A stretch of DNA of 51,725 nucleotides, from positions 1-51,725 of the forward strand of contig MAGU01000082.1 of NCBI GenBank assembly GCA_001717025.1, given 5' to 3'. Below, piece after piece: positions 26,561 to 38,168 of this stretch. The number at the start of each line of letters is the position of its first letter. Within the stretch, counting starts at the first letter, position 1. Origin of the DNA: Candidatus Methanomethylicus oleisabuli (GTDB lineage: Archaea; Thermoproteota; Methanomethylicia; Methanomethylicales; Methanomethylicaceae). The translations under genes were made by a program, and so were the position numbers. Under the pieces are notes generated by a model. That model did not search any database, was not told the origin of the DNA, and saw only the letters and a list, made by a program, of their open reading frames with translations.

Positions 26561-27703
26561 CTAATAATGCCCCCTTTGCGCATTCCCCTCCATCTTATTC
26601 TCTGCCCCGCTCTTCGCATCTGCCTTCCTGTCCGCAAATATCCTCTTGGCTCCGCCAACTGCAACCATGATTCCGGTCTCCCCCTCCCTCATCCCCCTCG
26701 GAAAGGCGTCCGAGAGCGCCTCGAAGAACCGGTTCCCTGTGACGTCGTAGAACGTTCCACAGCCGGGCGACCTCGAGTCGAGCCTGACGGGCCTTATCTC
26801 GTCGTCCCTGATGATCCTGATTCTGCCCATATCCCTCTTGAGGATGCGCCTGCTCCTCCCGTCCTCAAGCCCCTCCACGACCGCCATGCCCCTGTCGAAG
26901 CCGGATATCCTGAACGCCTTCCCCTCATACTCTATGAGCGTGCCGGTCCTAGCGGCAGGCAGCCTCGCCGAGATCGTGTTCCTGTAAGCCCGGCCGCCGG
27001 TGTCCTTGCTGACGCCGATGAGCTTCGGGCTCTCACAGACCGTCGCGCCGAAGAACTCGGAGAGCCACCTCGAGAAGATCCGGGCGGAGTTGAGCGAGAC
27101 GAACTTGATGTCGTAACCCCCTCCCACCTCCTTTATCTCAGTGACCTCCTGCCTTCCCCTCCCGGCGGTCTTCCTGTCGACCTCCCTGAACGCCGCCTCG
27201 ATCGCCCCCTCGTCCTGGGCGTCGACCTCCCTGCCCTCGCCCCTTACCTGGACCGTCGCCTCGTAGGCGCCCCTCGTCGCGCCGTCGCAGTCGCCGCACT
27301 CCATGTAAGCGACCCTAGCCAACGATGTGACCTCCTTGGTCGTTCCGCACACCGCCTCCTTCAGGCCAACCTTAAGGGAGAGCAGCTTCGGGAGCCCCTC
27401 GTCGTCCTCGCCGACCACCTCTGCCCGGACGTAGCTGATCGCAACCCCCTCTGGCAGCTCGACAACCCTCCCAACCTCGGTCATCGCGGCATCCTCCATG
27501 TCCTCGCGGAGGGGTCTCGGCCTCATCCTGAACCACCTCTTGCCCTGCATGTGCGAGTGGCAGACCCTGCAGTAGAAGAGCCTGACCTCCGGCGGGATCT
27601 CGACATCCGCCGCCTCCCAGAAGCACTTGCTGCAGACGCCGTGGATGTAGCACCCCTCCTCGGAACCGCACCTAGCGCAGAAGCGACCCACGATCCCCAC
27701 CAC
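26561..27703 (-). CDS. nmd3: NMD3-family ribosome biogenesis protein
   Basis: FC..CG...C..C, YC..C, C..C...G.YEA.VQ.R, GG.D, KL.G.....G...YR.TIS.RLP. Confidence 0.88.
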   Translation of the reverse strand: MVGIVGRFCARCGSEEGCYIHGVCSKCFWEAADVEIPPEVRLFYCRVCHSHMQGKRWFRMRPRPLREDMEDAAMTEVGRVVELPEGVAISYVRAEVVGEDDEGLPKLLSLKVGLKEAVCGTTKEVTSLARVAYMECGDCDGATRGAYEATVQVRGEGREVDAQDEGAIEAAFREVDRKTAGRGRQEVTEIKEVGGGYDIKFVSLNSARIFSRWLSEFFGATVCESPKLIGVSKDTGGRAYRNTISARLPAARTGTLIEYEGKAFRISGFDRGMAVVEGLEDGRSRRILKRDMGRIRIIRDDEIRPVRLDSRSPGCGTFYDVTGNRFFEALSDAFPRGMREGETGIMVAVGGAKRIFADRKADAKSGAENKMEGNAQRGHY

Positions 27704-27706
27704 GCA

Positions 27707-28024
27707 TCACAGGTAGACAAACTGGGCGTGGGGCACGCCGCCTATCATTATGACGCCCTCCTCGTGAACTATGCCTGCGTCTGTGCCGCACCTGACCGCG
27801 TTGACTCCGACGATATTCGCAATGGTTGCGGTCCTTAGCACGTCTGTAGCCGCCTCCGGAGTCATGAGCTCGCCCCCGTAGAACTCCCTAGAGACGTCCA
27901 GCGCGAGCCTCCCCTCCTTCAGCTTCTTCCCGATCAGTTCGCAGTCGCATGCGGCGACCATCAGCTCGCCCTTCCTAACGTTCCAGACCTTTACAAATAT
28001 GCACTTATCAGCCAACGCACGCAC
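27707..28024 (-). CDS. DUF424-family protein
   Basis: VAACD.ELIGK, V..EFYGG, ANIVG, I.GVPHAQ. Confidence 0.88.
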   Translation of the reverse strand: MRALADKCIFVKVWNVRKGELMVAACDCELIGKKLKEGRLALDVSREFYGGELMTPEAATDVLRTATIANIVGVNAVRCGTDAGIVHEEGVIMIGGVPHAQFVYL

Positions 28025-35582: not shown

Positions 35583-35891
35583 CGTGTACCTTACTGGTCT
35601 AGTGAAGAAGTTGTGGACGGTAGTCGTGATTTCAGCTCACCCAAATCCCACATATAATCCTAATGCCCGAACGCCCGCTGCGAAAGACAGGGCCAGCGCC
35701 GCCCCGCATAGAAATCGGCGTATATCGCATCCAGCAAGCTGCACGCCTGTCCAATACCGCGAATTCCGCACCCCCGTCCATCGATGAACCGCCGTCCGGG
35801 GCCGTCAGGTGCTCCTTTGAGGCGTATCGGGAACACGCATCTTAATATTGGGGGTTGCAGGATATGTAATTTTATCTTAAGGTGGTAAGTA

Positions 35892-37181
35892 TTGCATCAT
35901 AGGACTTTAGCGGCCTTAGTAATGCTCTCGCTGATCTTCACTTCATTCACGCCGTCCGTAAGCTCAACTGATGCCGCCGTGCAGAGGTATGTGTATCTGG
36001 AGCCGGGATATCAGATCTATATCGACGACTACAGCCTACCTGCTCCTGCAGGCAACTTTACCATCAGCTTCAATCTTGGGTCTCTCTACTACCTATACTC
36101 CGTGAGGGCATTCGGTCCTGAAAACCAGGCCCTCGGCATATCCGGCAACTGGACGCAAGAATCAAGCACCTTCAAGGTCACGGTCCAGGCTGGAGAGCTA
36201 ACGAACTTCAAGGTCATAACGACGCTCATCGGGACAACGACGTACTCATCTAACTACACGACCCCCATCAACTTCTTCCCGTCCATAAACGCCTCGCTGA
36301 GCGCCACGACAACGGTCCGGCTGCCTGCCGGAGCCGAGCTGCTCGAATTCAACGAGACCGGCGTCTCCCAGTCCACCATCGATGGGGTGATCCTCCTCTC
36401 CGGGTCGATCCAGACGACGCCAGGCGCCCACTACTACAGCAACGTAACCTACAACGGCACATTTGACCTCTTGGCTATACAGTCGTTGGAGCGGACCATT
36501 GAGGTCCACGCCGCCGGCGAGCACGTCCGCGAGTCCTTCAAGCTCATAAATGTCGGGAACGTCAAGGCTACGAGCGTCACGTTGGGCATCCCTGAAGGCG
36601 CCACAAACCTGCGCGCCTACGACCTGATCGGCAACCTCCCCATGACTTTCGGCGACGACAACGTGACCATCGCCTTCCACGCCAGGATACTCACGGGCGA
36701 GTTCGCCGCCTTCACGCTCGAATACGACCTTCCTCAGTCCTCGATCTCCATGAGCGGAAACACAATCTCCGTCTCCGGAAGCCTCCTGCCTGAATGGTGC
36801 AACTTCCTCGTCCGGCAGCTCAACCTGACCGTCGTGATGCCAGAAGGCAGCTCGAACGCGGTGGTGCAGGGCGGGACGGTCAATACGAGCGGTGGCAAGA
36901 CAATTGCATCATTCTCCAACGTGAGCCTAACGCCGTTCTTCAATGCAGATTACTCTCTATCCTTCTCCTACTCCCCGGTCGCTACAATGAGCTGGGGTGC
37001 CGCTATTGCGGTCATTATCGTGGTTGCCGTTGCTGCATATCTGGCATACCTCGCCTTCAGGCGTAGAAGGGTTGCCCATGACGAAGGCAATGCCCGCGCG
37101 CCCGCGCAGCAACCATCGCCCTCCCGGCAACCCCCTCCATCGCCCCGCGACCATTCAAAGGGCCAGAAAGCCAAGAAGTAA
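35892..37181 (+). CDS. Ribophorin I (RPN1/Ost1)-like secreted glycoprotein with C-terminal TM anchor
   Basis: Signal peptide, two beta-rich domains and a TM followed by RRRR. Motifs SLERTIEV, D.IGNL, LEYDLP and VVMPEGS.N are colinear with ribophorin I as recalled. 11 N-x-S/T sequons. Confidence 0.7.
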   Translation: MHHRTLAALVMLSLIFTSFTPSVSSTDAAVQRYVYLEPGYQIYIDDYSLPAPAGNFTISFNLGSLYYLYSVRAFGPENQALGISGNWTQESSTFKVTVQAGELTNFKVITTLIGTTTYSSNYTTPINFFPSINASLSATTTVRLPAGAELLEFNETGVSQSTIDGVILLSGSIQTTPGAHYYSNVTYNGTFDLLAIQSLERTIEVHAAGEHVRESFKLINVGNVKATSVTLGIPEGATNLRAYDLIGNLPMTFGDDNVTIAFHARILTGEFAAFTLEYDLPQSSISMSGNTISVSGSLLPEWCNFLVRQLNLTVVMPEGSSNAVVQGGTVNTSGGKTIASFSNVSLTPFFNADYSLSFSYSPVATMSWGAAIAVIIVVAVAAYLAYLAFRRRRVAHDEGNARAPAQQPSPSRQPPPSPRDHSKGQKAKK

Positions 37182-37328
37182 AAGGCAGCCGTCATGGCAA
37201 CGTTATCTCCAACCTTCATTCGTACTCTTCCTCAAGTCGCCTTCGCTGGCGCCTCCACGCCACCTGCGCCGCCGCGCCATCCTTCTACAAAAGGTTGATA
37301 AAGTCCTGCATCCAAGTGTGTGCAACAC

Positions 37329-38051
37329 ATGAGCCGAGCTGATTACATGGTTTTCGGCCTTCACTTCGAGACGCTCGTGCACACTAATCCGACACAGGAA
37401 CTATTGATAGCATTTCTGATGTTTGCGTACCTTCTGGCGGTCGTATTCGGTACAAAGTTCACATATGAGAGCATGATGAAGCACAACTTCGACAAGGGCG
37501 TGGCAGTGTACTACAACCGCAAGATCATCCACATCTTAGGCGCGGGGGTGATCACGCTCCTCTTCCCGATATGCTTCACCGCCCTCACAATCCCTGCGAC
37601 ATTGGTATTGCTCCTCGTTCTTATCATATACCTCCCCCACCGCACGAACCGGCTACTGTACTGGTTCCAGGTACCTGAAAATGCATACGAAGTAAACTTT
37701 GCGATCGCATGGGGCATAGTGATTGCCTTCTCTTGGTTCTTCCTAGGAGACCCGATATACGGGGTCATCCCCGCCCTCTTCATGGCTTTCGGAGACGCGG
37801 TCACGGGGCTCGTGAGGAACGCCGTCTTCAAGAGGCGGACCAAACACTGGATAGGCAACTTAGCCATGCTCTTTGTCTGCCTCCCGATAGGGTGGTTCTA
37901 TGCCGGCACGGCTGGGCTCGTAGCAGCGGTCGTCGCCTCGATCGCAGAGCACTTCGAGTACAAGCCTATAGACGACAACATATTGATCACCTTAACCTCC
38001 TTTGTTACCCTGCTTATTCTGAGGGGGGCTCTGACCGTTCGCGCCGGCTAG
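37329..38051 (+). CDS. Dolichol/phytol kinase-family (CTP-dependent polyprenol kinase) membrane protein
   Basis: RKIIH...G, M.FGDA.TG, K.W.G, AE.....DDN; multiple TM helices. Confidence 0.82.
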   Translation: MSRADYMVFGLHFETLVHTNPTQELLIAFLMFAYLLAVVFGTKFTYESMMKHNFDKGVAVYYNRKIIHILGAGVITLLFPICFTALTIPATLVLLLVLIIYLPHRTNRLLYWFQVPENAYEVNFAIAWGIVIAFSWFFLGDPIYGVIPALFMAFGDAVTGLVRNAVFKRRTKHWIGNLAMLFVCLPIGWFYAGTAGLVAAVVASIAEHFEYKPIDDNILITLTSFVTLLILRGALTVRAG

Positions 38052-38092
38052 AACAACAAAAAATAAAACTGACCCGCCCACACTCTTCTCTC

Positions 38093-38168
38093 AGCCCGGT
38101 GGTGTAGCGGCCAAGCATAGCGGGCTTTGGCCCCGCCGACAAGAGTTCGAATCTCTTCCGGGCTACCA
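38093..38168 (+). tRNA. tRNA-Gln(TTG), CCA encoded
   Basis: A1:U72 acceptor AGCCCGG/CCGGGCT, anticodon arm GCGGG-CTTTGGC-CCCGC, AAGAG-TTCGAAT-CTCTT. Confidence 0.96.

Follow-up and report, generated by a model that had tools for sequence, protein, structure and literature searches.

Yeast Ost1 (PDB 6c26/6ezn, 476 amino acids [aa]) sits in an eight-subunit oligosaccharyltransferase (OST) complex together with Ost5, Wbp1, Swp1 and Ost2, and the human member of the same family, ribophorin I or RPN1 (PDB 6s7o chain E, 607 aa), carries a cytosolic helical domain that contacts the ribosome. Here we describe an archaeal member of this family, encoded by open reading frame (ORF) A in a 51,725-nucleotide (nt) stretch of DNA from Candidatus Methanomethylicus oleisabuli (contig MAGU01000082.1; the whole stretch is referred to below as the window), along with its neighbor ORF B, a putative dolichol-kinase-like membrane enzyme. 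A described archaeal relative is OST1 of the Asgard archaeon Candidatus Prometheoarchaeum syntrophicum MK-D1 (607 aa; PDB 8whn for the cytosolic domain), whose C-terminal four-helix bundle pulled down human ribosomes, the cytosolic domains of human RPN1 and MK-D1 OST1 both being described as ribosome-binding in this way (Carilo et al., 2024, PMC11417166). In a single line, the same paper credits both TACK and Asgard archaea with OST1 and OST3/6; the passage of Eme et al. (2023) concerned with prokaryotic Ost1 and Ost3 mentions them only as “previously reported in Asgard archaea,” and the corresponding passage of Meyer et al. (2022) cites Asgard archaea only. On balance we favor a reading in which ORF A is a true, short-form ribophorin I/Ost1 protein that would act as a partner of the catalytic subunit AglB, with an OSTC-like protein as a possible third part, and in which the ORF A–ORF B arrangement is specific to one lineage.

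The original prediction, made by a model that saw only the sequence, held that ORF A resembles ribophorin I, and profile searches bear this out: ORF A is, as judged from these comparisons, a genuine member of the ribophorin I/Ost1 family. It scores 30.6 bits against Pfam PF04597 (curated cut-off 25; E=2.4e-7), and the matched stretch contains D244, which is invariant in the family (53-54 aligned sequences), together with G247 and Y278, which are nearly so. Scanned in full with HMMER, 1.84 billion representatives yielded 59 relatives at E<=1e-3; when 54 relatives, drawn from that scan and one further relative search, were aligned, 45 of them matched PF04597 themselves, the best at E=2e-24, and none of 14 control genomes had a match at E<=0.01. 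An outcome in which only S-layer or generic Ig-like proteins were found did not occur.

The family assignment extends beyond the Pfam match. When the short clade was represented by a profile of the 16 closest relatives (A2), the sole PDB match below E=0.8 was yeast Ost1 (6c26_1, E=5.5e-5), with which the clade shares D-x-x-G and LPEG blocks in the profile alignment; identity to yeast Ost1 is low, and this direct match spans the second domain alone. Compared by hhalign with a profile of 38 long forms (A4), A2 aligned at a probability of 100% (E=5e-45) over 394 columns that take in the leader, the whole ectodomain and the transmembrane helix. The long-form profile in turn matches human RPN1 end to end (residues 10-607, E=1.2e-38), yeast Ost1 (1.4e-17) and the cytosolic domain of the Asgard OST1 (8whn, 2.1e-31), the last of these also being found by a mixed family profile (9.3e-31). 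A second profile was built from nine long forms of assigned taxonomy, all of them found in genomes that belong to the window's own class; it too matches RPN1 (2.4e-19, residues 272-598), Ost1 (7.4e-7) and 8whn (3.8e-5), and aligns with A2 at a probability of 99.8%. Homology of the entire ectodomain to Ost1/RPN1 was thus found transitively, from A2 to the long forms and from these to RPN1. The four short blocks that the original prediction had paired with ribophorin I fall in the same profile columns along this path (ORF A against the long forms, long forms against RPN1). An Atlas feature search with ORF A also placed eukaryotic Ribophorin_I clusters at the top (score 0.87), which we take as a lead only.

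Could the match reflect chance, or the generic resemblance of one Ig-like beta-sandwich to another, with ORF A being an unrelated surface protein? A few observations lean that way: the Pfam match of the single sequence covers just 100 residues, the family profile has a weak cross-match to a CARDB-containing protein, and a single-sequence phmmer search of PDB with ORF A found no OST subunit (the best match, HisF at E=0.013, was taken as noise). A single-sequence phmmer search with a long form of 543 aa from the window's order had no match at E<=0.01. It also has to be conceded that the direct PDB match is confined to the second domain; for the N-terminal domain, homology to Ost1/RPN1 is transitive, by way of long forms of unassigned taxonomy. 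Set against these are a score above the curated cut-off, the 45 of 54 relatives that match the same family, its lack of matches in the control genomes, and profile matches over the full length, in which domains, transmembrane helix and cytosolic domain follow one another in the same order. A merely generic Ig/CARDB resemblance was rejected on these grounds, and we regard unrelatedness as extremely improbable.

Outside the window, the same genome encodes a protein of 825 aa (G000:C8:20234-20725; L025:2010-4487, + strand) that has a transglutaminase core, shows weak likeness to CARDB in one stretch and weakly matches the second-domain part of the Ost1-like family profile (E=8e-7); the same is seen in genome G005. 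This suggests a relationship of the Ost1-like beta-sandwich to surface domains that are common in prokaryotes.

ORF A had been described as a secreted protein of 429 aa with 11 N-x-S/T sequons and one C-terminal transmembrane segment. Its length, its position, its sequon count (exactly 11) and its single C-terminal segment were all confirmed, as was the position of ORF B; “secreted,” on the other hand, is better replaced by “type I membrane protein.” Hydropathy shows an N-terminal hydrophobic segment (~5-24), a single strong C-terminal segment (360-391, peak 2.67) and a basic, proline-rich tail after it, and because of this combination ORF A is predicted to be a type I membrane protein, probably glycosylated, with a large extracellular part: the same topology, as far as hydropathy can tell, as ribophorin I/Ost1. 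The 11 sequons of the ectodomain (residues 25-365) compare with a mean of 4.8 (standard deviation 1.9) in 2000 shuffles, of which 0.15% reach 11.

Particular to the family of ORF A is what follows the membrane anchor. The mixed family profile finds an Ost1-like gene in 27 of 41 related genomes, and the lengths fall into two groups: in Methanomethylicaceae (family f1) all 13 frames are of 416-454 aa, whereas the 14 best frames from the other families of the class (f2-f9) are of 541-572 aa. The additional C-terminal part of the long forms corresponds to the RPN1-type cytosolic helical domain, as the matches of the class profile up to RPN1 residue 598 and to 8whn indicate. No such domain is found in ORF A, which ends 38 residues past the transmembrane helix; it is therefore a short, Ost1-like form and, on present sequence grounds, cannot dock ribosomes by way of an RPN1-type domain. 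In this it resembles yeast Ost1, which likewise has a signal peptide, a long extracytoplasmic region and one C-terminal transmembrane helix, followed by only a short cytosolic tail, consistent with a length of 476 aa. Human RPN1 has its ribosome-contacting domain where ORF A has only a basic tail. The MK-D1 OST1, although it belongs to the same family and its cytosolic domain is matched by the long forms of the window's own class, has a four-helix bundle without counterpart in ORF A. Other Thermoproteota have long forms, in frames of ~533-643 aa with a single one of 714, that are homologous to ORF A over the whole ectodomain and transmembrane helix, but they keep the cytosolic domain and have no ORF B family gene adjacent (0 of 12).

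In a quick maximum-likelihood tree of 33 rows, the 12 Methanomethylicaceae rows form one clade (SH-aLRT 100), while two short proteins from other families of the phylum (394 and 417 aa) are placed elsewhere among the long forms. The cytosolic-domain columns were kept in this tree and several long branches were flagged; only the Methanomethylicaceae clade is used here. L008, L012, L014, L015, L018, L045 and L046 were omitted as repeat genomes or near-copies. From the distribution of the two forms and the tree, the simplest reading is that the cytosolic domain would have been lost once at the base of Methanomethylicaceae, with independent losses elsewhere.

Lists of “eukaryotic signature proteins” of Asgard archaea often include ribophorin I, and the original prediction implied that its presence in a TACK archaeon is unusual. 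That impression of rarity does not hold up: at E<=1e-3, 68 of 401 Thermoproteota species genomes match PF04597, and 58 of the 401 pass the curated cut-off, the latter spread over 41 of 158 genera, with most frames of ~533-643 aa. Together with this locus, the count shows that the family is well established outside Asgard archaea, in agreement with the one-line TACK statement of Carilo et al. (2024), by which TACK OST1 was already in print. Among the papers covered by our literature search, none on ribophorin I in Methanomethylicia was found; Table S1 of Carilo et al. (2024) and the supplementary tables of Eme et al. (2023) may list TACK Ost1 or Ost3 homologues. Thus the family is already known and common in Thermoproteota, and the locus adds a new member with a short variant that is family-wide. 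This single locus brings a modest gain, namely an annotation on firm ground, a correction to the supposed rarity and caution over the “kinase” label of ORF B (see below).

The note had further proposed that this lineage might have a multi-subunit OST, or an AglB–ribophorin complex. One AglB/STT3 is encoded in the genome (G000:C33; L003:718-2814, - strand): a 679-aa protein that matches PF02516 (119.2 bits, E=4.2e-34) and the STT3-PglB core domain. Its W515-W516-D517-Y518-G519 motif is invariant in 46 aligned relatives and is closely followed by a DNSTxNxT double sequon, a feature that Meyer et al. (2022) describe, in the section concerned, as common to TACK, Asgard and eukaryotic STT3. Plant STT3A proteins are among the sequence matches of this AglB (E ~1e-50), and an NAD-kinase gene divergently adjoins it.

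Elsewhere in the genome lies a gene for a 122-aa protein with three transmembrane segments (G000:C9:6653-7018; L005:1492-1860, + strand) that resembles OSTC/DC2. It was first seen as a weak match to PF04756 (E=0.015), and the copy in the window genome scores below the cut-off of that family (15.1 vs 27 bits), but the protein recurs in 28 of 41 relatives, and at E<=0.1 PF04756 is matched by 17 of 21 family members, the best at 1e-13. A profile of these 21 members (A8) finds human MAGT1 (2.7e-7) and OSTC (5.5e-7) in PDB, with the next match at 0.19; by profile, the protein thus belongs with OSTC/DC2 and with the membrane half of Ost3/Ost6/MAGT1 (6s7o chain H, 6s7t chain H), although it has no thioredoxin domain. 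Two further matches of PF04756 in the same genome fall in the thioredoxin-like part (profile positions 13-104) and were set aside as non-specific, the control matching in 12 of 14 genomes. Read by eye from translations, the flanks of the OSTC-like gene are a CDP-archaeol-synthase-like ORF upstream and a CoaBC-type-like ORF downstream.

As to the remaining subunits, OST48/Wbp1, ribophorin II and DAD1 (PF03345, PF05817 and PF02109) were not found at E<=1 in this 95%-complete genome, which is not to say that they are absent (for PF05817, the control genomes gave no match either), and for Ost5 (PF05251) the genome offered nothing credible, its only matches being at E=0.15 and 0.95. Of the two homologues named for this comparison, then, WBP1 did not turn up, whereas OST3 is represented by the OSTC-like relative of its membrane half. 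With one AglB and an OSTC-like protein in the same genome, the idea of a multi-subunit OST gains support, and more than one OST-type subunit in this lineage is plausible on sequence grounds.

In the reading that we favor, ORF A would assist the single AglB, itself having no catalytic part, at the outer face of the cell membrane, where, by analogy with what is thought of ribophorin I, it may hold newly exported polypeptides or present them to the catalytic subunit; the OSTC-like protein may join the two, and the cytosolic helical domain, kept in the other families of the class, would have been lost once in Methanomethylicaceae. Several observations weigh against such a partnership. The three OST-like genes are dispersed: the OSTC-like gene adjoins neither AglB nor ORF A, and in the 41 genomes the Ost1-like gene never adjoins AglB, coming no nearer to it than 15-17 kb, in other families. 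AglB is present in 30 of 30 good-quality genomes and in 22 of the 24 other Methanomethylicaceae genomes, whereas the Ost1-like gene was not found in 12 of those 24, among them every sampled genome of genera g5 (0/4), g8 (0/3) and g9 (0/2). If it is indeed an AglB partner, the Ost1-like gene would have to be a dispensable one. Further, an OSTC-like gene is present in genera that have no Ost1-like gene.

This patchy presence, along with the lack of linkage to AglB, also fits a true ribophorin I homologue that works independently of AglB and could be a surface glycoprotein (an envelope component, a holdase for exported proteins or an adhesin-like anchor), in which case ribophorin I would have become tied to OST only afterwards, within the Asgard/eukaryote line. 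The weak match of the second-domain profile to a transglutaminase-like surface protein bearing a CARDB stretch would then indicate that the fold is used outside OST, and the 11 sequons would make ORF A itself a likely substrate of glycosylation. Yet the order of domains, the membrane anchor and, in the other families of the class, the RPN1-type cytosolic domain are all conserved with the eukaryotic OST subunits; a second OST-type subunit, the OSTC-like protein, is encoded in the same genome; and eukaryotic Ost1 genes are also unlinked to STT3, so that missing linkage says little. We therefore hold an AglB-independent role to be on the unlikely side, though it is the most serious of the alternatives.

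The partnership of ORF A with AglB can be carried further, to a minimal three-part OST in Methanomethylicaceae (AglB, a tail-less Ost1 and the OSTC-like protein) that would have given up ribosome docking, would glycosylate after translocation and would be kept beside an enzyme that supplies dolichyl phosphate. We consider this extended version doubtful; were it true, OST subcomplexes I and II would be older than the Asgard–eukaryote line, with an origin in the ancestor that TACK and Asgard archaea have in common. Relatives of the window organism have been cultured (Methanosuratincola cultures), and these could provide a tractable setting for asking if AglB in archaea has Ost1-like and OSTC-like proteins as working partners. 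That a single class has both tail-less and tailed forms likewise offers a natural contrast for the role of the ribosome-binding domain.

ORF B was originally labeled a “CTP-dependent polyprenol kinase,” and this is not confirmed by any hidden Markov model of Pfam or NCBIfam: the label rests on the names of relatives and on neighbors of a predicted fold. At E<=1e-3 it has 628 relatives, mostly Thermoproteota, some of which bear the source names “dolichol kinase” or “phytol kinase” (NCBI, JGI), or else “phosphatidate cytidylyltransferase”; among 120 relatives listed, none has a Pfam domain on record. An alignment of 35 members shows 38 invariant columns, including those of YYNRKxIH, WFQ..N..EV, GDxxTG..R, RTK.W.GN and E..E...DDN; ORF B is a polytopic membrane protein, and its invariant motifs hold Asp, Glu and Lys/Arg. 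The Atlas model of ORF B (pTM 0.84) has as its nearest non-self clusters DUF92 (template-modelling score 0.73) and CTP_transf_1 (0.61), both below the bar for naming a family, and Makarova et al. (2015, PMC5898192) place both the archaeal dolichol kinase (arCOG01881) and DUF92, in the section that deals with them, in the cytidylyltransferase family.

ORF B resembles Sec59/DOLK and the CTP-transferase (PF01148)/DUF92 (PF01940) proteins in the names of its relatives and in the neighbors of its model, but differs from them in that none of the 35 members has a sequence match to these in Pfam, NCBIfam or PDB. ORF B itself has no match at E<=1 in Pfam and NCBIfam. Several results speak against a kinase assignment: PF01148 and PF01940 were matched at E<=10 by 0 of 35 members, as were the relevant NCBIfam models (0 of 35); the family profile had no PDB match at E<=10; and an hhalign comparison of ORF B with the CarS-type PF01148 proteins of the phylum gave a probability of 0.3%. 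We nevertheless think it quite likely, from the source names and the predicted-fold neighbors, that ORF B is a dolichol-kinase-like membrane enzyme, with a predicted place in the CTP-transferase/DUF92 fold class. PF01148 proteins were considered as possible relatives and rejected: they occur in 12 of 61 genomes of the phylum, are CarS-like by eye from their translations (146-189 aa) and have no relation to ORF B, and the window's own genome has none at E<=1. In one genome of the phylum, two dolichol-kinase-like copies lie 3 kb apart, one of them with an in-frame TAG (G115:C6:114623-115261 and 118133-118771).

Do the two genes form a functional module, for example a dolichol kinase that would re-phosphorylate the released lipid carrier beside the transferase? 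Across the 41 relatives, which are kin and not independent, 22 carry both genes, 5 have A alone, 6 have B alone and 8 have neither. In Methanomethylicaceae the two lie within 1.7 kb of each other in 13 of 13 genomes that have both: eight pairs are adjacent and co-oriented, two are adjacent and convergent (G001, G004), and three have one gene between them (genus g7, which is Methanosuratincola by a matching named record). A module would accord with this neighborhood, with the survival of adjacency through an inversion of B in two genomes, and with the g7 loci (L010, L011 and L045), where of 20 genes tested from the 24-50 kb part of the window only A and B, and none of the 18 others, were found within ~6 kb of the pair. 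The inserted g7 gene would fit as well, having a sugar-nucleotide theme: in Methanosuratincola verstraetei it encodes a 314-aa protein of the NAD-dependent epimerase/GDP-mannose 4,6-dehydratase type (L011:7557-8501, - strand). Both g7 observations favor selection for the arrangement.

The evidence from beyond the family points the other way. None of the nine relatives outside Methanomethylicaceae that have both genes has them as neighbors (in one they are 9.6 kb apart, in the rest on different contigs), nor do three further genomes of the phylum, so that adjacency outside the family is 0 of 12 in total. An obligatory operon is ruled out by the two genomes in which the genes converge, 11 of the 41 genomes have only one of the two genes, and the kinase activity of ORF B is itself putative, with no family model matched. 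In addition, gcvP, a gene of unrelated function, lies divergently beside the Ost1-like gene in families f1, f2, f3 and f7, four in all from the class (L011, L007, L020, L021 and L022), so that an adjacency conserved at this place may come from plain inheritance. A functional module is accordingly quite improbable in our view. The search for synteny across Thermoproteota, in short, upheld the pair within Methanomethylicaceae and in none of the 12 genomes outside it: the neighborhood is a lineage-specific arrangement of one family, at most loosely functional, rather than a general tie between OST and the phosphorylation of lipid carriers, and the pair as a general archaeal module was rejected. 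The link to lipid-carrier phosphorylation that had been drawn from it is weak, being no more widely conserved than the adjacency of gcvP.

In the same-genus relatives L007 and L009/L046 (the latter two being one genome), ~3 kb separate the CBS gene from the Ost1-like gene, as compared with ~310 nt in the window (35583-35891). In L007 an 806-aa ORF with a glycine-cleavage P-protein domain lies between them (L007:3529-5949).

The features of the locus are collected in Table 1. The TTG start of ORF A is preceded at 6-10 nt by a Shine-Dalgarno-like GGTGG, and its MHH... beginning is common to close relatives. The longest frame of ORF B (37320..38051, +) has 243 aa from a GTG; depending on the start chosen, the gap between the genes is 138 nt (GTG 37320), 147 nt (ATG 37329) or 165 nt (ATG 37347). 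Because 34 aligned relatives begin (M-x-FGLHFE) at the position of ATG 37347, and the called protein, also of 234 aa, fits, this last is the most likely start of ORF B; the gap of 147 nt given earlier is thus right for ATG 37329, but becomes 165 nt with the start that we prefer.

Table 1. Features of ORF A, ORF B and the spacer between them (positions in the window).
Feature	Position	Strand	Remark
ORF A: short-form ribophorin I/Ost1-like type I membrane glycoprotein (predicted), 429 aa	35892..37181	+	TTG start
Signal-peptide-like N-terminus, residues 1-25; hydrophobic core ~5-24, then SVSS/TD	35892..35966	+	Hydropathy; kept in close relatives
N-terminal extracellular domain, residues ~26-195; 7 of 11 sequons	35967..36476	+	Boundary estimated from alignments with long forms
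Stretch matched by Pfam Ribophorin_I, residues 227-326 (profile 258-363 of 437)	36570..36869	+	PF04597
Single transmembrane helix, residues ~366-391	36987..37064	+	Hydropathy 360-391; aligned to the long-form transmembrane helix
Short basic, Pro-rich cytoplasmic tail, 38 aa	37065..37178	+	In place of the ~150-aa helical domain of long forms
ORF A–ORF B intergenic spacer, 165 nt if ORF B starts at ATG 37347	37182..37346	.	ORF B start from family alignment
ORF B: polytopic membrane protein; Thermoproteota family named “dolichol kinase”/“phytol kinase” by sources	37347..38051	+	

Contigs from RNA libraries (four runs from two studies, at >=95% likeness) cover pieces of ORF A (35886-37270) and of ORF B (37564-38095). 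None lies over 37271-37563 and none joins the two genes, a gap that says nothing on whether there are one or two transcripts. As a further point to be held against our interpretation, such contigs may include DNA carry-over; the run shares are 0.26 or less, and no habitat is named from them. One contig (run X1, 36973-37270) passes the stop of ORF A, runs 89 nt into the spacer and ends with nine unmatched letters, which could be a 3' end or the end of the assembly.

The window is contig C79 of a 1.37-Mb genome (G000; 86 contigs). That it comes from a TACK-type archaeon, as had been supposed, was confirmed: by nearest named relatives it belongs to the genus Methanomethylicus in the class Methanomethylicia (Verstraetearchaeota) of the phylum Thermoproteota. 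The closest named contigs with relatives of ORF A are those of Ca. Methanomethylicus mesodigestus (73% identity) and Ca. Methanosuratincola (35-37%), plus two metagenome-assembled genomes filed as Nitrososphaerota. The surroundings of the two genes are no glycosylation island; they include a CitMHS transporter, a CBS protein, an AMP-binding ligase, a CN-hydrolase and a glutamine synthetase, as well as a UPF0004/radical-SAM protein, a Met-tRNA ligase, Ogg and an inositol monophosphatase. At 26567-27838 (+ strand) the window also holds a 423-aa ORF with no Pfam match at E<=1e-3.

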